A stretch of 64,000 nucleotides of DNA from a virus: the IMG/VR virus record IMGVR_UViG_3300035696_000019, positions 32,001-96,000 of that record; one strand, written 5' to 3'. Under the pieces are notes generated by a model. The model was not told where the DNA came from. It searched no databases and saw only the letters and a list, made by a program, of their open reading frames with translations. Positions 31,897 through 55,312 of this stretch are shown here, piece after piece; position 1 is the first letter of the stretch; each line of letters opens with the position of its first letter. The position numbers and the translations under genes were made by a program.

Positions 31897-32793
31897 TTAC
31901 GCTGCGAGTGGAGCATTCAGAACAACTGGCTGGAGCGTATCGACTTCATCGAAGTTGGCATATGGCTTCTTGGCGACAAAAGCATTCCAGGCCGCCATGA
32001 CTACGCGAGCGCGAACGTCATGATTGACGGTGCGCGCCGTATGCTCGCGCAACCAGTTCGCCAGTTGCACGCAGGGATGTGCGCCTTTCAACGACTCGGG
32101 GTGCGCAACCGCCGTCCAGAATTTCACTGCCATTTCAGGCTGCTCGATGAGCGACACGATGCCAACCGACATCGTGCCGGCGCTTTTCAACTGCGCTCGC
32201 AGTGCGCCTTCTGCCTTGCTGGTGACGGTGAGAAACTTTACTCCCGGTGCGCCATACTTCTCTTCGAACAGTCTGGCGATTTCGGAGGAATCGCGTGTGT
32301 CGGCGTAAACGGGATCATTCTTGCTCACGTTGTTTCGGAAGCCGATCATGATCGTGCGAATGGCGCTGGCAATCTTCTGCGCCTCGCCACCCGTCAGGTT
32401 GAACTTTTTGGGCAGGCCGTGTGCGTGGTAAATCTCGGAAGGCGACCGGGGCAGTCCAACATCATGCTGCGAATAGGCGCGGATCAAATCCACTTCCTCG
32501 GTCGCCTCTTGATATTTGATCGCCAAATCGATGGCCACTCCCGATTTGACGATGGCGGCCAGCCGGTGTTGACCGTTGATGATGTAGACTTCGCCCTTGT
32601 ATTTCATCAGATGAATCTGTGTGCCAGGCTCGAAAGTTCCGCCGATCATATGTTTCGCCAATTGGCGAACGTGGTGATCTTTCACGCGGCGCTGCTCTAG
32701 CACCTCCAGTCGTTCCCACTTGCAGGCTTTCAACAACTTGTCGGCGTTTTCGGGCGTAATGACATCTGCGTAGTGTTGGGTATCGGTAATCAT
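31897..32793 (-). CDS. ParB-like (DGQHR-type) protein
   Basis: QRRVKDHHV..LA..M..G.F...IINGQHRLAAIV. Confidence 0.7.
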   Translation of the reverse strand: MITDTQHYADVITPENADKLLKACKWERLEVLEQRRVKDHHVRQLAKHMIGGTFEPGTQIHLMKYKGEVYIINGQHRLAAIVKSGVAIDLAIKYQEATEEVDLIRAYSQHDVGLPRSPSEIYHAHGLPKKFNLTGGEAQKIASAIRTIMIGFRNNVSKNDPVYADTRDSSEIARLFEEKYGAPGVKFLTVTSKAEGALRAQLKSAGTMSVGIVSLIEQPEMAVKFWTAVAHPESLKGAHPCVQLANWLREHTARTVNHDVRARVVMAAWNAFVAKKPYANFDEVDTLQPVVLNAPLAA

Positions 32794-46046: not shown

Positions 46047-47069
46047 TTAGCTTTTGGCGTAGAAGTCCTGAATCATCTTGCGCAACAACGGCTCCTCACC
46101 GTCTCTGCGAATCTTCTCCGCCAGCGCCTTGATGAAGTATTGCTTGCCATCCACCCAGGTCACGCGCGGTTTCTTGTAGACGATCGCCTCATTTTCGATC
46201 AGGAATTCGATTGCGCTTGTGATGGTGTCAAACAGGGCGATGTCGTTCTCGTCGTAGATCAGGCGCAGACTGGTATCCTGAAATGGTCGGGTGAATTTCG
46301 ACTTCACGCACTGGATTGAAATCTTCTGGCCGATGAACTCTTTGTCGTCTCCCGTGCCTTCCATGATCTTCTGGCGTCCGAGGATCAGGCGGAACGACGC
46401 ATAGAACTCCATCGCCTTACCGCCTGGCGTGGTGCGAGGATCGCCGAACGACACGCCAGGTTTGAGGCGCATCTGATTGAGGTAGACAAACAGCGCGTTA
46501 TATTCTTCTGCATGCTGCGCCATCGCCTTCAAGGTGGTCGAGGTGACGCGCGCCAGTGCCGTGGTGTCATTCATCGTGTATTCAGTGATTTCCTTCTCCG
46601 CCTGCGACTTGGGCAGAGCGGCGGCAATCGAGTCGAACACCCAGACGATCGGCGCCTTCGGATCAAGCGCGCCGGATTCGCGGATCACCTTGCACGCCTT
46701 CGCCGCGACAACATTGCCCTCCTCCCAGGTCTTCGGCTTGAAGTAGAGCCATTCCGGGCGCTTATCGCTCAGACCGAACTGTTTTGCCAGATCAACCGAG
46801 AACGAACGCTCCCAATCGGAGAAGCCGGCAACGCCACCCGCTTGTTGCGCAGCCACCATCCACTTCGTCGCCAGTGCTGTTTTACCGGTAGAGCTTTCGC
46901 CAAATACTTCACCCATGCGCCCCATCGGTAGGCCACCATGCGGCGAGCCGCTGATGATGGCATTCAGCGGATCGAAACCGGTATCGATCCAGTCAGTGAT
47001 CGCCTGGTTGCCAGCGTTGTCGCCCAGCGCTGAATCCAGCGACGCCATCAAGTCTTCCAGTTTTCCCAT
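46047..47069 (-). CDS. RecA/UvsX-like recombinase
   Basis: IDTG...LN, GGLPMGR, GESSTGKT, DSIAA, NQMR, TPGGKA..FYAS. Confidence 0.93.
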   Translation of the reverse strand: MGKLEDLMASLDSALGDNAGNQAITDWIDTGFDPLNAIISGSPHGGLPMGRMGEVFGESSTGKTALATKWMVAAQQAGGVAGFSDWERSFSVDLAKQFGLSDKRPEWLYFKPKTWEEGNVVAAKACKVIRESGALDPKAPIVWVFDSIAAALPKSQAEKEITEYTMNDTTALARVTSTTLKAMAQHAEEYNALFVYLNQMRLKPGVSFGDPRTTPGGKAMEFYASFRLILGRQKIMEGTGDDKEFIGQKISIQCVKSKFTRPFQDTSLRLIYDENDIALFDTITSAIEFLIENEAIVYKKPRVTWVDGKQYFIKALAEKIRRDGEEPLLRKMIQDFYAKS

Positions 47070-47072
47070 GAT

Positions 47073-47996
47073 TTATGCTCCAGCCAGCGCCTTGAACGGC
47101 GCGACAAAATGATTGAAGGTATCGGCATTGCGAATGATCGAGAGGAAGCACAGCTCCTCGCACAGCGCCCGGAAGGCGTCTTCGTCATAGGCGCCGTTGT
47201 CCACGACCAGCGCCTCGCGCGACGGCTTGGCAACCTTGAGTAGCTGCATCAACTTGAAGTTGCGCAGCAACAGCGCGCGACCGCTTTTAGATGCGAGATT
47301 GACGTGGGCCTTCTTCTTTGGAATGAAGTCACCGCTGTCACAGCGCGCCAGAAAGTTTCTGACTGATCCGAACTCAGCGAGAAATTCTGGCGCTCCTTTT
47401 TTACCGATTCCACCGACGCCCGAAATACCGTCGGAGTCGTCTCCCTGGAGCACCTTGCCCTCCAGAAACGCCATCGGTGTGCGGTAGCCGGTTCTCTCAA
47501 ACAGATTGGCGACCGTCAGCATCTTGCTGTCGTTGCGATGATCATTCCATGTCACGTTCGGGCGGATCAGTTGCGCCCAATCCTTATCGCCGGTAATCAG
47601 GATGATTTCGTTTTCCGGCTTGTTGGTCAGTCCCGCCACCAGAAAGCCCGCCAGATCGTCGGCTTCATAGTTGGCGGCGCGCATCTGGCGCACACCCAAC
47701 GTGTGAAGCGCGCGCTCGATAAAGGGGGTTTGCGACTTGTAGGCCGCGGTGTCTTGCTGTTGCTCGGGCGTCTCGTTGCGCTTGCCCTTGTAGTCGGGAT
47801 GCAGATCGAAGCGCCACTGCGCGCGCTCGTCCCACAATGCGACCGGCGTGAAGCCGGGGTGGCTACGCAGCGCATCGCGGATTGAGCGGATGGTGCCAAA
47901 AACAGCCTGAGTTTGCTGCGTGCCGACGGTCAGCTTGGTCGCGCTATGCGCCGCGCGCCCGACAGAATTGCAATCAACCAAAATGGTTCGACTCAT
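47073..47996 (-). CDS. 5'-3' exonuclease / flap endonuclease (T4 RNase H-like)
   Basis: YKGKR, YEADD, TGDKDWAQL, GDDSDGISGVGGIG.K.A. Confidence 0.92.
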   Translation of the reverse strand: MSRTILVDCNSVGRAAHSATKLTVGTQQTQAVFGTIRSIRDALRSHPGFTPVALWDERAQWRFDLHPDYKGKRNETPEQQQDTAAYKSQTPFIERALHTLGVRQMRAANYEADDLAGFLVAGLTNKPENEIILITGDKDWAQLIRPNVTWNDHRNDSKMLTVANLFERTGYRTPMAFLEGKVLQGDDSDGISGVGGIGKKGAPEFLAEFGSVRNFLARCDSGDFIPKKKAHVNLASKSGRALLLRNFKLMQLLKVAKPSREALVVDNGAYDEDAFRALCEELCFLSIIRNADTFNHFVAPFKALAGA

Positions 47997-48010
47997 GTTT
48001 TCCTCCGATG

Positions 48011-48037
48011 AAAAAGGCGGGTGAATTCACCCGCCTT
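48011..48037 (-). terminator. Rho-independent terminator
   Basis: AAGGCGGGTG-AATT-CACCCGCCTT with a T tract on the minus strand. Confidence 0.75.
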
Positions 48038-48054
48038 CGTTGGTCACAAGTCGA

Positions 48055-48855
48055 TTACTGCGGAATGTCAGCCAGCAGGTCGTCCAGATCGGATTCCAGC
48101 GAGGCGCTAGCGCGCGCGCTTTCCACTACGCGACCCGCTTCCGCTTCGCCGGTTGCCGCAACCGATGCGGGTCGCGCTGCCGGGGCCGGCAACAAACCGG
48201 AGACAGTGCGAATCGCGCCCAGTGCACGCCTTTCCTGCTCCTCCGATTCCTGCGCCACGAATTCGTCCAGATTGCGACGCTTTTCCATCGCGCCCTTCGG
48301 CATGGCGATCTTCTTCGGGCTGACGTTCACGCTGTAGCGCGTATTCAGCCCCTTGCCAGTGCGTTCGATTACGACGATTTGCGGCTCGGAGTCGTCGAGC
48401 AAGGCTTCCGCCCAGTCTTCCATCAGCGAGTTCAGATCGGAGAAGATGCCCTTGCCCACTTCGAGCACTTGCGGCTCGTTCGGGGTGTCGGTATCCAGCG
48501 CCAACACGTTCAGCACGAAGCCCTGCTTGGAACCGGCTTCCTTGAGCATGTTGATGACGGCATCTTCGGTGGCGTGCGATTGCGCTTGCGCGATACCGGC
48601 ACAGACTGCGCAAGGTGTGCCGTAGGTCTTGTCAGCGCACGGATAAACAGCCTGGATCTGACCGGCGGCATCCTTGATGTAGTGCTGGCCGAATTCATGG
48701 AACCAGACATGCTCTTCGCCTTTGCGCCAGCCTTGCAGGATCACAAAGCGGTTGGTGCCAGCGACCGGCTTGATGGTCTTTTCCTTCGGCTTGAGGGCGG
48801 CTTTTTTCTGTTGGGTCAGATTCTTGAGTGCTGAGAAGTCCATTTGTTTGCTCAC
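48055..48855 (-). CDS. gp32-like single-stranded DNA-binding protein
   Basis: H..C..CAVC zinc site, RTGKGLNTRY, acidic tail DLDDLLADI. Confidence 0.75.
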   Translation of the reverse strand: MSKQMDFSALKNLTQQKKAALKPKEKTIKPVAGTNRFVILQGWRKGEEHVWFHEFGQHYIKDAAGQIQAVYPCADKTYGTPCAVCAGIAQAQSHATEDAVINMLKEAGSKQGFVLNVLALDTDTPNEPQVLEVGKGIFSDLNSLMEDWAEALLDDSEPQIVVIERTGKGLNTRYSVNVSPKKIAMPKGAMEKRRNLDEFVAQESEEQERRALGAIRTVSGLLPAPAARPASVAATGEAEAGRVVESARASASLESDLDDLLADIPQ

Positions 48856-48998
48856 TTTCGTTTGGCGTAAATTAAGTGCTTGGTGAATTCACCAGATGCG
48901 GTTAATGCCTTTAGATAGCCTGTTTCGCTATCGGTTCAGCAATTTGATTATAGCTCACTGCTGACTGATTTTAGCAAGACAAAACAATCGCCTCGCAA

Positions 48999-50018
48999 TC
49001 AGCCCAACGCACGCGCGGCAGCAGCGGTTGCGCGACGCGACAACTCTTCGCGCTCTTGCTGTGCGGCCAGCACCCGCAGTTGTCCCTTGCCCTCTTCGCG
49101 GCGATCTGCGCCAAGCTGAATCAGCATGTCGCGGCGATCGCCGAACGAGATAGCCATTCCCTTGTTGATCTGAGCGATGGCTTCCGCCTCGATCACGGTG
49201 TTTTTCATCTTGAGCCAGCGCGGATCAGTCTTGACTGCCGATTCGATCGCCTTCTCGGTCACTTTCGGGCCGCCGGCAGCCGCCAGCGCCTCCAGTTGCT
49301 TGCGGTGATCCATATACAGCTTGGCCTCCACCACGTCGAAGCGCGCCTTCATGCGCCCCGCCTGGGCCTCCGCCTGTGCGGCCAGTGAGCCGTAGTAGGC
49401 GCGCATGCTGGCTTGTTCCATCATGCAGTTGTCCAGATTGGCTTCGCTCACGCTCACGTCACGCCTGAACTGCGACTGATCCACCATGTAGTCGAGCGGA
49501 TAGGGATCGGTGGTGACTTCCTTTTTCGGCGCAACGGGAGGAGCGAGTTCTGGGCGCCCCATTGGTTCAATGGCGACAGCGCAGATTGGCTCAACCACTT
49601 TGGCAACGGCGACCGACTCCATCACCGAGCCACCGTTGTCAGTCAGAAGAGGCTTGTCGAGAGCCGGCGCTTCGGGTTCCGCTGCCGGTTTCTCATCCGG
49701 CACAGTCACCGACTCACTGGCGAGCGCCTCGATTTCCGCCAGTTGCGCTTCCATGTCGGCGTCTTCGTTGACGACTTCCGGCTGTCCTGGTGGGGTTGAC
49801 TCAATGACCGGCGTCGAGGCTTCGACTTCCGCAACCGGCTCGTCCAGTGCCTCCAGCGCAGCCAGGTCAGCATCGTCGAGTTCGACCGGCGCAGCCTCCG
49901 CAGCGACCGTCGGGGCGGGCGCCGCAGCGGTTGAAGTGGCGGTGATCGCTTCCAGATCGGTGAGCAGGCTCATCAGCTCCTCTTCACTCACTGCGACTTC
50001 GGGATTGGTTGTTGCCAT
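48999..50018 (-). CDS. UvsY-like recombination mediator with a long acidic N-terminal extension
   Basis: C-terminal KVTEKAIESAV..DP...RRDMLIQLG..R.E; located beside SSB and RecA. Confidence 0.55.
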   Translation of the reverse strand: MATTNPEVAVSEEELMSLLTDLEAITATSTAAAPAPTVAAEAAPVELDDADLAALEALDEPVAEVEASTPVIESTPPGQPEVVNEDADMEAQLAEIEALASESVTVPDEKPAAEPEAPALDKPLLTDNGGSVMESVAVAKVVEPICAVAIEPMGRPELAPPVAPKKEVTTDPYPLDYMVDQSQFRRDVSVSEANLDNCMMEQASMRAYYGSLAAQAEAQAGRMKARFDVVEAKLYMDHRKQLEALAAAGGPKVTEKAIESAVKTDPRWLKMKNTVIEAEAIAQINKGMAISFGDRRDMLIQLGADRREEGKGQLRVLAAQQEREELSRRATAAAARALG

Positions 50019-50102
50019 GTTCGTATTCCTTGCGTCATTTGGTTCGACAGTTGAATGGTATAGAGCGCGGCCAGGGGTTGAAATCACCCCTGACCATGTT
50101 CC

Positions 50103-51353
50103 CTATTCCAGAATTTCGGCAACCTTCTGGAAGGTTGCCAGTAGCAGTTCCGCTTTTTCGGGCGTGAACACCAGTTGCACCGGGTTCAGACCGCACACGA
50201 TCGAGGCATCCAGCTTCGGGTCGTAAATAGCCTGTCCCACCAGTTCGGACGGCGGCGACTTCTGGCCCGGCAGCAGGCGCTTGATGGTTGCGCTGCCCAA
50301 TGCCACGATGACCGAGGGTTTGATCAATTCGATTTCACGCTCGATATACTTGGCGCAGCCATTGATCTGCTCATTCGACAGAAATTTGCCGTCTTTCTTG
50401 GCTTTGACCAACGTGGTGTAGTAGCCCTCCGCCACATTCAGCCCCGCATCTTTCATGGCGGCTTTGACGAAATCGGCAGCGTCGCCCACCAGCAGCTTGT
50501 CCTCCCTCTCCTCCTGCCAGGTTGGGCAATCGGCAATGACCATGAATTTGACCTTGCTCTTGCAGCGCACCGTCGGGTGTCCCGCGCCGGCCAGCGAGCA
50601 ATCCTCGCACTTGGTCTTGTAGTCTTGCGCCAATTCGATAATTTGAGTGCGTAGGAATTTTTCACTCAGGTCAGTCACGCGATCCGCCTTCACCGAGTCG
50701 ATGATGAGGCCCGGCAATAGCTCCATCTGGTCTTTGCGGCGCGAATCATGACGCGCAGGCTTGGCGCCAGGGTCAATGTTCGCCAGTGCGCCGACCAGCT
50801 TGAGACTTTCCACCACTCGCACGTTGACCTTGGAGCCAGGCTCGGCGGCTGCGTATTCGAATTCCTGCACGGTATCGAAACGCCCCTTGACCGGACAGTC
50901 TTCATCCATGCCGTATACCGCTTCGCCATTGCGCTTGGTCTTGACCACCTTCCAGTCACGGTTATTGACGCGCAGTTCCATGATGCGTCGCGCGGTCGTG
51001 TCGGACACCCCTTTGACCGCATTGAACGGCGCGAGAATATGCTGGTCATCGGGGATCACATAAGTGTCGGCGGAGCGATTGATGTCCGGCGGCAGTAGCT
51101 CAATACCGGCCTCGCGCGCATCCTTGACCAGTCCCGGCAGCTTGTCTTCCGCCACAATGGACATGCAGGCGGCGAAGTATTCCGCCGGGTAGCGCACCCG
51201 CAGCCACATGGTGAAGTAGCTGATGATCGAGTAGGCGGTGGCGTGGGATTTGTTGAAGCCATACTGCGCAAATGTCTCCAATTTATCAAACAGTCGCTCT
51301 GCATCGGCTTGAGCCATGCCGTTGTCCACTATTTTGCAGGCGGTAATTTTCAT
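50103..51353 (-). CDS. dnaE: DNA polymerase III alpha, C-terminal half, fused to a family-4 UDG-like domain
   Basis: Start MKIT has a GGAGA RBS; FAQYGFNKSHATAY, YPAEYFAA, PPDINRS, HhH VKGVS; then CEDC...EIELIKPSVIVALG. Confidence 0.9.
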   Translation of the reverse strand: MKITACKIVDNGMAQADAERLFDKLETFAQYGFNKSHATAYSIISYFTMWLRVRYPAEYFAACMSIVAEDKLPGLVKDAREAGIELLPPDINRSADTYVIPDDQHILAPFNAVKGVSDTTARRIMELRVNNRDWKVVKTKRNGEAVYGMDEDCPVKGRFDTVQEFEYAAAEPGSKVNVRVVESLKLVGALANIDPGAKPARHDSRRKDQMELLPGLIIDSVKADRVTDLSEKFLRTQIIELAQDYKTKCEDCSLAGAGHPTVRCKSKVKFMVIADCPTWQEEREDKLLVGDAADFVKAAMKDAGLNVAEGYYTTLVKAKKDGKFLSNEQINGCAKYIEREIELIKPSVIVALGSATIKRLLPGQKSPPSELVGQAIYDPKLDASIVCGLNPVQLVFTPEKAELLLATFQKVAEILE

Positions 51354-51517
51354 TTTATCTCCATCAAAAAATGATGCACTTGTTCGGAGTCGAAAAGAGG
51401 GCGCCCGAGCACATCGCTCTCTTTCGTCAAGCCAGAGTTCCACGCTGACCGCCCTTTCTTTGCCATTTCTCCGCGCCTGAGACTATGTTTCTGTAGCCAG
51501 TTTTTATCCATGATTTT
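51350..51517 (-). pseudogene. Decayed homing-endonuclease remnant between the dnaE halves
   Basis: One frame reads KSWIKNWLQKHSLRRGEMAKKGRSAWNSGLTKESDV...EQVHH...IK*. It contains a WNKGLTKETD-type motif, and its stop overlaps the dnaE-C ATG. Confidence 0.55.
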
Positions 51518-51555
51518 CACAAAGTCACCAATGACTTATTCGGCATAGCAACAGA

Positions 51556-53922
51556 TTACAAGCCACTCAATAGCGTGTAACCTTTTGCCATAATCTCCTC
51601 TACGGTAAACTTTTCGTCGCTTTCGCTGACTGCAAATTTTGCCGCGCGATGAACTCGTTTTACAGTGCCATTCTCAAGAGTGACCTCAATTTCCCCTTTC
51701 GTTGCGCCATAAACGAATTTCTCTCGCATGGACGCCATAAGCGTCGCGTCTTTCTTGCCCATCGCCTTGCGTAGCTTGTCGGCTTCCGCCAGTGTGTAGC
51801 CCGCCACGTCTTGCGACACGCGCATAACCTGCTCTTGATAGATCATCACCCCGTAGGTGGTTTCCAGTGCACCGATCATGTTCGGATGGTCGTAATGTGG
51901 CGCGCGATGGCCTTGCCTGATGCGCACGAATTCATCCAGCATGCCGGAATCCATCGGGCCGGGGCGGTAGAGCGCGGTCGCGGCAGTGATGTCTTCGAAC
52001 GTCAGGCGGCCACCTTGCGCAATGTCGCGCAGCAGCTTCTTCATGCCTGAACTTTCAAACTGGAATACGCCGGTCGTCTCGCCGCGCCCGAAGGCATCCA
52101 TGATGTCGGGGTCTTCCAGCGGCAGCGTCAGGTAATCCACCTCAATGCCATGCCGCTCTTTGATCATGCGCTTGGCGATGTCGAGCACGTCGAGCGTGGA
52201 CAGGCCCAGAATGTCCATCTTGACGAGGCCCATGTCCTCGACCACGCGTTTGTCCCAATTCGTTACCGGCGATTCACCGCGCGTTTCAACCACGGCGCGC
52301 TCGGTCAATGGTTCGCCTGCCACCACCACACCCGCAGCATGTGTGCCGAATGAGCGCATCACGCCTTCCAGCTTGGTTGCATGGCTCCAGATGGTCGGGA
52401 ACTCGCTCTTGAAGCGTTCCAACTCAGGCACGGCTTTGGCTGCCTCTGTCAGCGAGAACGACGTGCCGCCCTCTTTGGGCACCAGCTTGGTGGCGGTCAT
52501 GTCGAGACCCGACAACCCGAATACACGCCCGGTATCGCGTAGCGCCGATGCGGAGGCCAGTGTGGCGTAGTTGGAGATACCGGCGACGCGATCTGCACCA
52601 TAGGTGTCGCGCAGGTATTCAATAACCTTGTGGCGCACTGAACTGGCGAAGTCCAGATCGGCGTCGGGCAAATCCTGACGCTCGGGGTTGATGAAGCGCT
52701 CAAAGATCAGATGAAAGCGAATAGGGTCAACTTCGGTCATGCCGATCAGGTAAGCAACCAGTGAGCCGCCGACCGAACCCCGACCGGGGCCAACGATTAC
52801 GCCGTTGGCTTTGGCCCAGTTCACCAGATCCTCGACCAGCAGGAAGTAGTTACAGAATCCCAGGCGGTTCAGCGTGCGCAGTTCGTATTCCACGCGCTCG
52901 ACATAGGGCTTGAGATCGGTGGGCTGATAGCCCAACACCGGACGCAGCAGGCGCTTCTTGAAGCCCTCTCTGACTTTGGCGCACAACAGCGCAAAGTCGT
53001 TGTCCGACATGACTGGCAGACACACCGGTTGATTCTTGAAGGCGTAGTAGTTGCGCTTGGCGAAGGCTTCGATGTTGTTCAGACCCGCCATCCACAACTT
53101 CGGAAAAGGTGTCGGGTCGATGCCGTCTTGCTTGCAGCGCGTCAACATGCGTGTCGCTGCCGCCTTCACCTTTGTCACCAGTGACTTATCGTCCTGAAAG
53201 GCAAAATCCGTGACGAATTGCACTGGACGCCACCGGCTATCCATCTTCTCCTGTGAGGCAATCACACTCAGCACGTCGAGCGTGGGCGCGTCTTCCGCCT
53301 GGCGATAGAAGACGGGATAGGTCACGAGCGTCGACAGACTCAGCGCATCGGCTGTCAGCGCCGCCTTGAGATTCAACGTGTCGAACAGCGGCGTATTGAT
53401 CGGCGTCAGTTCCACGTAAGTCGGAAACCGTTTGGCGAGTTCACCCACAATGCGACGGTGATCCTCGACGTGGAACACGTTGAACAGGTCGCCAGTCGTG
53501 ACGACCACATCCTCCAGAGCCAGCACATCCTCCAGCCCGACACGGCTCACGTAATAGAAATAGTCGGGCGCATTGCCTTTGGAGAGCAGCTTGATCAGGC
53601 TTTTCATCCCCGCTTCCGACGTGGGGTAAACCTTGATCTGATACATCGGATTGGGGGCTTCCTTCTCACCGCTCGCCTTGGAGGGTTTGCGGTAAGTCGG
53701 ATCACGCACCACACGCACCGTGCAGCCAATAATCGGCTTGAGGCCCGCTTTGCCCATCTTGTTGGAAAAATCAATCATGCCATGAATCGACATGATGTCG
53801 GCCAGCGCGACCGACTCCAGCCCCATTGCTTTGGCCGTTTCGACGATGTGATCGATTTGCAGCATCGATTGCCCGATGCTGAAATCGGAACGCACCGCGA
53901 GAGCATGTGCCAGGTTCATCAT
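51556..53922 (-). CDS. dnaE: DNA polymerase III alpha, N-terminal half, with an intein-like 48-aa tail
   Basis: PHP domain (metal ligands degenerate), GPGRGSVGGS, FERFINPER, PDADLDF, KMDILGL, YQEQVM, LRKAMGKK. Confidence 0.95.
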   Translation of the reverse strand: MMNLAHALAVRSDFSIGQSMLQIDHIVETAKAMGLESVALADIMSIHGMIDFSNKMGKAGLKPIIGCTVRVVRDPTYRKPSKASGEKEAPNPMYQIKVYPTSEAGMKSLIKLLSKGNAPDYFYYVSRVGLEDVLALEDVVVTTGDLFNVFHVEDHRRIVGELAKRFPTYVELTPINTPLFDTLNLKAALTADALSLSTLVTYPVFYRQAEDAPTLDVLSVIASQEKMDSRWRPVQFVTDFAFQDDKSLVTKVKAAATRMLTRCKQDGIDPTPFPKLWMAGLNNIEAFAKRNYYAFKNQPVCLPVMSDNDFALLCAKVREGFKKRLLRPVLGYQPTDLKPYVERVEYELRTLNRLGFCNYFLLVEDLVNWAKANGVIVGPGRGSVGGSLVAYLIGMTEVDPIRFHLIFERFINPERQDLPDADLDFASSVRHKVIEYLRDTYGADRVAGISNYATLASASALRDTGRVFGLSGLDMTATKLVPKEGGTSFSLTEAAKAVPELERFKSEFPTIWSHATKLEGVMRSFGTHAAGVVVAGEPLTERAVVETRGESPVTNWDKRVVEDMGLVKMDILGLSTLDVLDIAKRMIKERHGIEVDYLTLPLEDPDIMDAFGRGETTGVFQFESSGMKKLLRDIAQGGRLTFEDITAATALYRPGPMDSGMLDEFVRIRQGHRAPHYDHPNMIGALETTYGVMIYQEQVMRVSQDVAGYTLAEADKLRKAMGKKDATLMASMREKFVYGATKGEIEVTLENGTVKRVHRAAKFAVSESDEKFTVEEIMAKGYTLLSGL

Positions 53923-53955
53923 TATTGCCCCTTGATTACTATCTGATGATTCATA

Positions 53956-54645
53956 TTACGCATCCGCTCGCGGGACGAGAATGACGCGACCGTTCTTCTC
54001 CTCGACCAGGCCAAAGGCGAGCAGCACCGGGACGACGATGTTTACATGCGATGATGCCGACGATGTGCTCCAGCCCAATTCCGACTTGAACAGATCGCGG
54101 ATTTCCGACCGTGTGAGTGCGCCACGCAGCAATCCAGCGCAAATTACACTGACGAAGACTGGCTTCTCGTTGAGCATTGGATTGCGACCTTGCGCAAGGT
54201 CTTTTCGCATTGCGTCAATCAGACCGCGACGCAGCAGCTTTTCGGCCAGATCGCGCGGCTTCACATTCAGCGTATCCAGTTCACGACAACAGGCGCCGGT
54301 AATGGCGACCTCTTGCGCTTTGGGCGCGGGTTTAGGTTTTGACTTTGGCTCAGGCTTGACGCGCTCCAGTGCAGCCATACCGGCGGCAGACGCGGCAAAG
54401 GCCATCGTGGGCTTCTCCGCGTCTGCATCCGCCGCTTCCTGACGTGCCTTGATGATGGCTTGCGCATGACGACGCAACAGGGCTTCCACATCGACCTGCT
54501 CGCGGATCGCCTTTAGAGTGCGCAACGACTCGACCTGGCAGTGCTTGAACGCCATGCACGCCTGACACAGCGCGGCGTCACTGCTGAATACGCTTGCGGC
54601 GCCAAAGCATCCCGGCGCCTTGCGACTGACATCCAAAGCATCCAT
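53956..54645 (-). CDS. Protein with N-terminal Cys4 cluster and C-terminal winged helix
   Basis: PGCFG...CQAC....C; ELGWSTSSASSHV...L.AFGLV. Confidence 0.65.
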   Translation of the reverse strand: MDALDVSRKAPGCFGAASVFSSDAALCQACMAFKHCQVESLRTLKAIREQVDVEALLRRHAQAIIKARQEAADADAEKPTMAFAASAAGMAALERVKPEPKSKPKPAPKAQEVAITGACCRELDTLNVKPRDLAEKLLRRGLIDAMRKDLAQGRNPMLNEKPVFVSVICAGLLRGALTRSEIRDLFKSELGWSTSSASSHVNIVVPVLLAFGLVEEKNGRVILVPRADA

Positions 54646-54652
54646 GATTCCC

Positions 54653-55312
54653 TCACTGATTCAGGCTGTCGGACAACCGCAGCAACTCTTCATGTGCGGC
54701 GCGCACTCTGCCCGCTGGCACACCCATGCGCGTCATCAGGCGACAGATCAGTTGCAGATCTGTCGCCACGCGAGCGCGTTGACCTTGAGTGCGCGCGTAG
54801 TTGGCATGTGCCTCTTCCGCGCAGATTTCACGTTGTAATGCCGCAGAGGGCGCAAGCATCCAGCGCAACATCAGGCTGGCGAGCGGCGACAGTGTGCGTA
54901 GTGCCTGACGCACGCCCATGCGTCGCGTCCACAGCTCCTCCGGCGAGAGCGTGCCGGAGTCGATACACTCCAGCAGATCTCCATCCGAATCGTCCGGCAT
55001 CAACTCCTCAACCGAGCACACGCCCAACTCACGCTCCTCGATTTGCGAGGCAAAACGACGATTCATTTCGTTGAAAGCGGCGCGGTAGAAATAGGTGGAG
55101 AATGCGATGCCCCGCGACGGATCAAACTTGCGCTGCGCCACGATCATGACCGTGATCAATTCCTGGCGCACGTCGTCGAATTCTGAAGATACGCCGATAC
55201 CATGCAGACGACGCAGCACCTTGCGCGCCACGGTATACAGCATCCCCTCATGCTTCTGTAGAAAAGCAGCCACCGACCGCTTTTCTTCCGCGACAACCAG
55301 ATCGGCGGCCAT
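54653..55312 (-). CDS. Sigma-70-family factor
   Basis: FDDVRQE......A..KFDPSRGIAFSTY (region 2), SPEE, ALRTLSP. Confidence 0.8.
   Translation of the reverse strand: MAADLVVAEEKRSVAAFLQKHEGMLYTVARKVLRRLHGIGVSSEFDDVRQELITVMIVAQRKFDPSRGIAFSTYFYRAAFNEMNRRFASQIEERELGVCSVEELMPDDSDGDLLECIDSGTLSPEELWTRRMGVRQALRTLSPLASLMLRWMLAPSAALQREICAEEAHANYARTQGQRARVATDLQLICRLMTRMGVPAGRVRAAHEELLRLSDSLNQ

Follow-up and report, generated by a model that had tools for sequence, protein, structure and literature searches.

A split dnaE gene with intein-like half-HINT flanks in an SSU5/pABTJ2-like phage

The DNA analysed here is a stretch of 64,000 nucleotides (nt), positions 32,001 to 96,000 of the IMG/VR virus record IMGVR_UViG_3300035696_000019; we refer to it as the window and give all coordinates below as window positions. 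It belongs to a phage of about 106 kb that resembles SSU5 and pABTJ2, and in it the gene dnaE, encoding the alpha subunit of DNA polymerase III, is carried on the minus strand as two open reading frames (ORFs): an N-half at 51556..53922 (788 amino acids, aa) and a C-half at 50103..51353 (416 aa), separated by a gap of 202 nt and set in different frames (Table 1). Pfam identifies PHP, DNA_pol3_alpha and DNA_pol3_finger in the N-half, where the finger profile (positions 1-164 of 166) is exhausted at aa 742 and 46 further residues follow, and HHH_6 (aa 83-135) and UDG (aa 265-398) in the C-half. The C-half starts at an ATG at 51353, and the first 12 aa of its protein (MKITACKIVDNG) form a head whose final four to five residues take the place of native DnaE residues. 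The hallmarks of DnaE, namely PHP, the palm aspartates, the fingers and the HhH beta-binding domain, are all present and distributed over both ORFs, with PDxDxDF invariant. Positions 4-743 of an N-half profile match residues 6-739 of the E. coli alpha subunit, and a PDB profile search with the N-half matches alpha of E. coli and Taq. When the concatenated halves were aligned with the unsplit DnaE of Pseudomonas phage nickie and Salmonella phage SSU5, the break was found to sit within an insertion that spans about 56 aa and is bounded by 'F..GA' and '..G[LM]', and the tail that ends the N-half was absent from the unsplit nickie-type enzyme. No polymerase sequence is lost at the split according to this alignment and to the E. 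coli alpha profile. Thus the ORFs, Pfam and these comparisons confirm what an initial annotation, made by a model from the sequence, had described: a dnaE split at this loop, with a 48-aa tail, a C-half head and no loss of polymerase. Neither a sigma-70-like promoter nor a terminator was found on the coding strand of the spacer.

Table 1. Features of the split dnaE locus in window coordinates.
Feature	Position	Strand	Content and basis
dnaE N-half, native part (aa 1-740)	51703..53922	-	PHP, palm with PDADLDF catalytic motif, thumb, fingers up to ...REKFVYGA; ORF and Pfam
N-half tail, 48 aa (aa 741-788), TKGEIEV...LLSGL, TKGEIEVTLENGTVKRVHRAAKFAVSESDEKFTVEEIMAKGYTLLSGL	51559..51702	-	predicted half-HINT module, approximately residues 50-100 of a DnaE N-intein
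N-half stop codon TAA	51556..51558	-	sequence
Spacer between the halves, 202 nt	51354..51555	-	site of a 191-252-aa HNH homing endonuclease gene in relatives
56-codon ORF P0003, HNH homing endonuclease fossil	51350..51520	-	TGA overlaps the ATG of the C-half (ATGA)
GGAG Shine-Dalgarno sequence of the C-half	51359..51362	-	5 nt to ATG (sequence)
C-half head, 12 aa	51318..51353	-	predicted beta-strand completing the half-HINT module; approximately the first C-intein strand
dnaE C-half, remainder	50103..51317	-	rest of the fingers (…YGFNKSH…), HhH beta-binding domain, C-terminal uracil-DNA-glycosylase-family domain

Our searches support a HINT origin of the tail and the head, which correspond to the second lobe of a DnaE-type N-intein and to the first strand of the C-intein. 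A profile hidden Markov model of 31 inserts of the family was run against 1238 targets, consisting of all collected proteins that lack the insert and the six-frame ORFs of the phage genome, and it gave a single significant match outside the family, to residues 981-1019 of protein P0295 (28.5 bits, E 2.4e-8). This region lies inside a genuine DnaE split N-intein of 97 aa, inserted at GYGFNK|C at the C-terminal end of P0295, a protein in which Pfam finds two intein stretches. Reciprocally, phmmer with the P0295 N-intein returned other inteins first and then the tails, always over intein residues of about 50-95, the best tail matches being those of P0008 (E 6.8e-5) and P0274 (E 4e-4). Homologous tails end about 26 other split N-halves, an exhaustive representative search alone having added about 24, and the profile, together with tblastn (48.9% identity to SSU5 over 90 aa), links the tail of the window to the other inserts. 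Other searches returned no such signal: Pfam at E<=10 found no HINT signal in the window tail or the SSU5 insert, the Pfam model Intein_splicing and the other Pfam HINT models did not detect the insert, phmmer of the SSU5 insert against the PDB found no HINT, nor did hmmsearch of a 7-sequence N-half profile against the PDB, and a six-frame PF14890 search of the whole phage genome gave nothing at dnaE and only two HINT domains, both in tail genes of the phage.

The fold of the module was predicted with AlphaFold2 on a fused SSU5-type form, 71 aa from a Kluyvera contig with a 31-row alignment. The model (pLDDT 80.5) has strands at residues 9-14, 19-23, 27-29 and 35-37, a helix at 38-44 and a strand at 52-59, the last of which is the equivalent of the head and aligns to intein residues beyond about 100. 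It superseded a first model from a 9-row alignment, which was of low confidence (pLDDT 59.7) and gave the same ranking in fold searches. Among 48,161 PDB representatives, VIA-align placed inteins in 13 of the 14 top ranks, led by the HhaDnaE intein (Z 4.9, root-mean-square deviation (rmsd) 3.4, 61 residues aligned, chain residues 48-115), with PI-PfuI (Z 4.6), gp41-1 (Z 4.0) and the Npu DnaE N-fragment (Z 3.6, residues 48-96 of 101) further down; inteins, BIL or hedgehog account for 23 of the 50 rows listed. Foldseek against the PDB gave inteins at all of its top 10 positions, 8 of these being DnaE inteins (best 7qil, E 0.021, probability 1.00; 4qfq with rmsd 1.9 Å over 40 columns at 25% identity). 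In the alignment the tail stops where the Npu N-fragment stops, and the head is matched to the residues that come next, which places the gene break, and the endonuclease gene that relatives carry in it, at the canonical intein split and endonuclease-insertion site. As modelled, the module represents the central half of a HINT domain, with the first approximately 45 residues (block A) and the last approximately 25 (blocks F and G) missing. The fold is thus incomplete: the module has only about 56-60 aa and the model covers intein residues of about 48-115, compared with two lobes and at least about 130 aa for the whole. The similarity to the second N-intein lobe and the first C-intein strand, which the initial annotation had proposed, therefore stands on the profile match, the reciprocal phmmer search and the fold searches.

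Two results tell against such an origin. The tail of the window, of a divergent 'type A', matches the P0295 intein only weakly by itself (E 0.037 among 31 sequences), so that significance rests on the family profile, and the scores of the fold searches are modest (Z <5, Foldseek E no better than 0.02), as the module is small, half a domain, their ranking being nevertheless specific. These Z scores, together with the blindness of Intein_splicing, the other Pfam HINT models and the PDB sequence searches to the insert, could be taken to mean that the fingers simply carry a small beta-rich decoration unrelated to inteins, which resembles them by chance or convergence. We consider this quite improbable, since the profile match (E 2.4e-8) is to a genuine split N-intein of the same protein family and is reciprocated, two independent structure aligners put inteins first almost exclusively, and the break and the endonuclease gene fall at the canonical intein site.

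The contents of the gap were read at four split loci, those of the window, p4727, contig L167 and pABTJ2. In Klebsiella phage vB_KpnS_p4727 (also in the GArcari-2022a/b records) the halves are separated by a 233-aa ORF with NUMOD4, HNH_3 and HTH, in the IMG/VR contig L167 by a 252-aa HTH and HNH_3 ORF the end of which overlaps the start of the C-half, and in the A. baumannii plasmid pABTJ2 by the gene of a 191-aa NUMOD4 protein, its stop codon overlapping the C-half ATG. The same site in dnaE hence hosts two distinct endonuclease architectures. In the window, residues 37-51 of P0003 (VLGRPLFDSEQVHHF) match the HNH_3 core of the L167 protein (LLGRPLRAEEHVHHI) with 9 of 15 residues identical (E 2e-4), and P0003 matches PHROG 20891 'HNH endonuclease' weakly (E 0.12). 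A Pfam search with P0003 was without match, and the spacer of the window showed no similarity to the NUMOD4-type endonucleases of p4727 and pABTJ2, only the HTH-HNH type of L167 being matched. Judged from its sequence, P0003 is the fossil of a decayed endonuclease and is still translationally coupled to the C-half. The C-half of pABTJ2 is found at 90% identity or more in 126 plasmid records, with Acinetobacter contributing 154 of the 273 matching records, and is annotated there merely as 'uracil-DNA glycosylase family protein'.

The decay of the endonuclease indicates that the locus in the window is not under homing selection, and it could be argued that the split has simply inactivated the phage polymerase, with the host Pol III replicating the element. 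This is highly improbable, because both halves are full length and free of internal stops, with PDxDxDF, HhH and UDG intact. Moreover, the split is retained in about 24 N-half clusters (50% identity) and about 50 C-half clusters, and more than 120 near-identical A. baumannii plasmids keep it.

The residues needed for protein splicing are absent from the module. The tail opens with T-K-G right behind ...FVYGA, without the Cys or Ser that would serve as the block A nucleophile, and across the family its first position varies (T, Q, V, A, K, M, E, S, I, C). Block B lacks TxxH: T-S-N-H of P0295 aligns with H-R-A-A in the window and with a family consensus of H-R-x-x. Blocks F and G are absent as well, native DnaE resuming directly after the 12-aa head, in which Asn precedes Gly and then Met or Leu rather than forming a terminal Asn followed by Cys, Ser or Thr. 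To judge from these motifs, the loss of blocks A, B, F and G excludes splicing by known chemistry. None of the four defining features tested is present, and the module of the window falls outside the splicing inteins. The same losses (no block A, HRAA at block B, no blocks F and G, Gly after Asn) had been reported in the initial annotation and are read again from the sequence and the P0295 alignment; its statement that splicing is impossible is borne out for known chemistry, all catalytic blocks being missing. It had also put the site about 20 aa upstream of the cyanobacterial dnaE split, a distance compatible with the GYGFNK|C inteins 24 aa downstream of the head.

Joining at the RNA level finds equally little to point to. 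Rfam detected no intron family in or around the gap, and the spacer RNA has no excess of structure over shuffled sequences (z -0.32). In p4727 and pABTJ2 the endonuclease ORF occupies the gap and leaves no space for an intron core. Furthermore, free-standing C-halves of about 50 clusters share a conserved start, MKI.S.K.LNDG. The enzyme is therefore most likely assembled from two unspliced chains. Phage polymerase genes commonly harbour inteins and HNH-bearing group I introns, and relatives carry real inteins within 30 aa on either side of the break, which would lend some appeal to the idea that the halves are covalently joined after all, by non-canonical protein splicing or through an intron, bypass or frameshift. 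We regard it as extremely improbable in view of the missing nucleophile, TxxH and blocks F and G, of a module that holds some 60 aa of a fold requiring at least about 130, of the RNA results and occupied gaps just given, and of a C-half with its own Shine-Dalgarno sequence and ATG behind which MKI is conserved.

Tail and head are one module of about 56 aa that is in frame and unsplit in SSU5-type phage-plasmids. The DnaE of SSU5 is a single coding sequence of 1172 aa with the same insert (…QAGWIDVEMEDGTTQRIHRAEHFKCEDGALRTVEEALEAGVKLPMAAVRVTGSQPG…) and no split. A 94-aa query ending with the window tail was covered to at least 80% in 929 PLSDB records, from Klebsiella, Escherichia, Enterobacter, Yersinia, Salmonella and other genera, and was found in 17 phage records. 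Further fused forms occur on Kluyvera and Yersinia plasmid contigs and in P0007, P0009, P0292 and P0311. The linker that joins tail to head varies among them in both length and sequence, and P0009 retains an internal 'MKIKNILVLDDG' after a linker of 17 aa; this pattern is easier to read as split genes having re-fused independently than as one ancestral insert having been split several times. At 113 other DnaE loci the spacing is the normal 70-72 aa. A metagenome scan with P0007 returned 80 ordinary bacterial DnaEs, all of normal 70-72-aa spacing, the contig of P0007 itself not being among them. Megablast against phages and plasmids found no near-identical DNA, the query itself was all that a protein homology search retrieved with the isolated 51-aa tail, scanning IMG/VR for the tail peptide gave insert-free DnaEs only, and a degenerate DNA-pattern scan of IMG/VR gave only chance matches out of frame. 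One contig, L020 (IMGVR_UViG_3300012075_000001, 109,742 bp), has a DnaE C-terminal part close to the C-half of the window, sharing the segment …NRDMKIVKYKRN…YGYDDDAPIKGRFDS…. The dnaE of L020 is unsplit and free of the insert, and so represents a natural 'empty site' for the lineage of the window.

The module is not a product of local decay in this genome, and on this point the initial annotation needs correction: the same module of about 56 aa is fused in the SSU5 type, flanks HNH genes in relatives and is phylogenetically scattered. Three points had been missed there, namely a single shared insert that is fused in the SSU5 type, an endonuclease in the gap, and mobility.

The distribution of the insert was examined on a FastTree phylogeny of 95 DnaE N-parts, from which the insert had been excluded and whose states were scored as none, fused or split. 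The tree requires 25 state changes (mean of shuffled states 27.6), of which well-supported branches force 17-19. In an IQ-TREE subset of 38 taxa, the approximately unbiased test rejected a single insert-bearing clade (delta log-likelihood 3020, p 4.6e-82), with the caveat that both the group and the subset were picked after the first tree had been seen. With the insert scattered over the DnaE tree and its monophyly rejected, the cassette is to be regarded as mobile. Relatives in IMG/VR with 84% identity to the split C-half P0150 have neither the split nor the insert, and diverge sharply from it in the exon directly behind the head (…FDKIEAFAGYGFN… vs …WEKTEANANYQFN…). Similarly, the dnaE DNA of SSU5 and p4727 is 80-88% identical, but only 55-67% beside the cassette. 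Both patterns look like tracts of homing co-conversion.

In many cassette-bearing alleles (P0125, P0132, P0139, P0150, P0173 and others, as well as SSU5) a variant exon lies downstream of the head, in which W[ED]xTEANANYQFN[KR]SH replaces FDKIEAFAGYGFN[KR]SH; the window carries the ordinary type (LFDKLETFAQYGFNKSH). The variant may be a co-converted, cleavage-immune version of the endonuclease target. The stretch of about 70 aa of DnaE around the split of the window is also a hot spot for mobile insertions in relatives. Genuine inteins occur near the split at C|VYQEQ (P0215) and at LRK|C…HN|CMGKKD (P0294, P0295), and at GYGFNK|C, the site 24 aa downstream of the head, Pfam confirms the split N-intein of P0295 and a full intein with LAGLIDADG in P0322. 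A further split N-intein ends P0289, near its residue 619.

The split, the homology of its flanks to inteins, the missing catalytic blocks, the endonuclease in relatives with its remnant here, and the sporadic distribution are observed. We explain them as follows, an explanation that we hold in its entirety with moderate confidence. A mobile cassette of three parts, a coding flank of about 48 aa, a free-standing HNH homing endonuclease gene and a second coding flank of about 8-12 aa, would have invaded dnaE, the first flank becoming the C-terminal tail of the N-half and the last the start of the C-half. The half of the HINT domain with Cys1, TxxH and the terminal His-Asn is missing, which rules out protein splicing. 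In the window, the endonuclease has decayed to the 56-codon fossil. The two polymerase halves, intact, co-oriented and each with its own start, would be made as separate chains and associate non-covalently, the acidic tail and the basic strand of the head re-forming the half-HINT beta-sheet by strand complementation beside the native interface of the fingers domain. The outcome would be a two-chain Pol III alpha-UDG replicase.

The last step presumes that tail and head bind each other and aid assembly as a clasp, which we infer from conservation, from charge and from the model, where the head forms a strand of the module. The head matches the remainder of the C-half in conservation (mean pairwise identity 0.56); the tails reach 0.34-0.36, as compared with 0.27 for PHP and 0.50 for the neighbouring fingers. 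Among N-halves that are 32-62% and C-halves that are 45-69% identical to those of the window, G743, D751, G752 and T773 of the tail and M1, K2, I3 and G12 of the head are invariant or nearly so, the head residues in 40 split C-halves. Across the family the tails are acidic (mean net charge -3.2) and the heads basic (+1.1), a pairing that recalls the electrostatic 'capture' step of split DnaE inteins. A complex prediction with the tail (aa 736-788, 25-row alignment) and the head (aa 1-34, 40-row alignment) gave ipSAE values of 0.24 and 0.25, the mark being 0.32.

Other findings speak against the clasp. In the window itself charge complementarity is weak (by hand count, tail -1 and head +1). The module persists in fused SSU5-type enzymes, where a clasp is unneeded, so that persistence alone is no proof of function. 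In addition, the tails of Aeh1 NrdA, which derive from a mobile element, are dispensable for formation of the heterodimer and needed for higher-order assembly and activity (PMC3045599). The latter two findings, and the lower conservation of the tails than of the adjacent fingers, would fit a passenger remnant, in which the intein-derived flanks are neutral and were co-converted with the endonuclease, the halves assembling through the native fingers-domain interface alone. We think this rather unlikely: M1, K2, I3 and G12 of the head and G743, D751, G752 and T773 of the tail stay near-invariant across divergent halves, tail and head are complementary in charge throughout the family, and neutral flanks of 48 aa should erode or vary, whereas the tails hold to one length class and one predicted fold. 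A broader version of the half-HINT clasp would see a widespread class of 'non-splicing split inteins' driven by homing endonuclease genes, in which the cassette cuts dnaE, supplies its own minimal heterodimeriser (a half HINT of about 48 aa plus about 10 aa) and may later lose the endonuclease or re-fuse, as in the SSU5 type; we put this forward tentatively, as falling just short of an even call.

Outside the split, the C-half of the window ends (50160-50561, minus strand) in a UDG-family domain in place of the usual OB-fold/tau-binding C-terminus, and this DnaE-UDG fusion is common to nickie-, SSU5- and pABTJ2-type elements. The replication module at 46047-55312 (minus strand) is syntenic with pABTJ2, the shared order being a sigma-70-family factor, a hypothetical gene, dnaE-N, (the endonuclease), dnaE-C, two hypothetical genes, a 5'-3' exonuclease and a RecA-like recombinase. 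This synteny places the phage among the SSU5/pABTJ2-like phage-plasmid relatives. The two HINT domains in its tail genes are real, lie outside the window and have weak C-terminal matches to PF14890 (E 0.0018). One, at G000:C1:6687-7127 (L044/L047, minus strand), is a mini-intein-like CLIAG…THN|NC in a glycine-rich fibre/adhesin-like ORF; the other, at G000:C1:13952-14293 (L045/L046, minus strand), is a CFRAG…VHN|GG Hint close to the N-terminus of an open frame of 1394 aa (gpJ-like tail protein).

If the clasp is real, an intein can outlive the loss of its chemistry by retaining only the 'capture' interface, which would link fractured genes with split inteins to endonuclease-split genes assembled by tails and would account for a replicase split that common clinical plasmids carry without annotation. 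Besides introns and inteins, a mobile element would have a third way of making its insertion harmless, the non-splicing split intein. Small orthogonal docking tags of natural origin could also be drawn from the family, as could candidate pairs for non-covalent protein docking. It offers natural states of the life cycle of such an element, namely the empty site, the cassette with endonuclease, the cassette with fossil and the re-fused insert. What makes the family of interest is that it is widespread and mobile and that it might serve as a minimal docking pair of natural origin. In the literature on SSU5 and phage-plasmid DnaE inteins and on intein remnants we found no published description of a half-HINT module in DnaE.

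Several known systems come close. The best structural matches of the module, the cyanobacterial Npu/Ssp DnaE inteins (PDB 4qfq, 4lx3, 2keq) and that of HhaDnaE (7qil), sit in the fingers region of the same host protein. With the split intein of cyanobacterial DnaE it shares the break point in the fold, an acidic N-part and a basic C-strand, but it is inserted about 20-25 aa further upstream, lacks the first lobe with Cys1 and blocks F and G, has H-R-x-x at block B, and is encoded by two adjacent genes, not at distant loci. The DnaE of the SSU5/pHCM2/pMT1 type has the same DnaE-UDG architecture and an insert of about 52 aa at the same position; there it lies in frame in one polypeptide of 1172 aa, without endonuclease, whereas in the window it is cut in two. 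The fractured genes with split inteins described by Dassa et al. (2009) retain the six HINT motifs in full as well as the five catalytic residues, and trans-splice (PMC2677866). Our locus resembles them in the adjacent, co-oriented halves of an essential replication gene (dnaE included) with an endonuclease gene between them, in the intein-type sequence that closes the N-half and opens the C-half, and in the break at the canonical endonuclease-insertion site. It differs in that only the central half of the fold (about 48 plus 8-12 aa) is present, without catalytic residues, and in that the endonuclease is not GIY-YIG or Vsr-like but HNH (NUMOD4-HNH or HTH-HNH), and a fossil in the window. The arrangement is a fractured gene as Dassa et al. 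understand the term, except that its endonuclease is of the HNH type and its intein devoid of any catalytic block. In Aeromonas phage Aeh1, Crona et al. (2011) studied NrdA-a and NrdA-b, split by mobE, and proposed that their tails neutralise the fragmentation through protein-protein interaction (PMC3045599). There too an essential gene is fragmented by a free-standing HNH endonuclease, the new termini bear tails absent from unsplit homologues, and no splicing takes place. In contrast to the Aeh1 tails, those of the window are homologues of a HINT lobe, occur in many lineages and are also found fused in frame; function was shown for Aeh1, and for the window we infer it. By this analogy, any function of the module, if it has one at all, would resemble that of the Aeh1 NrdA tails, but with an identifiable HINT origin.

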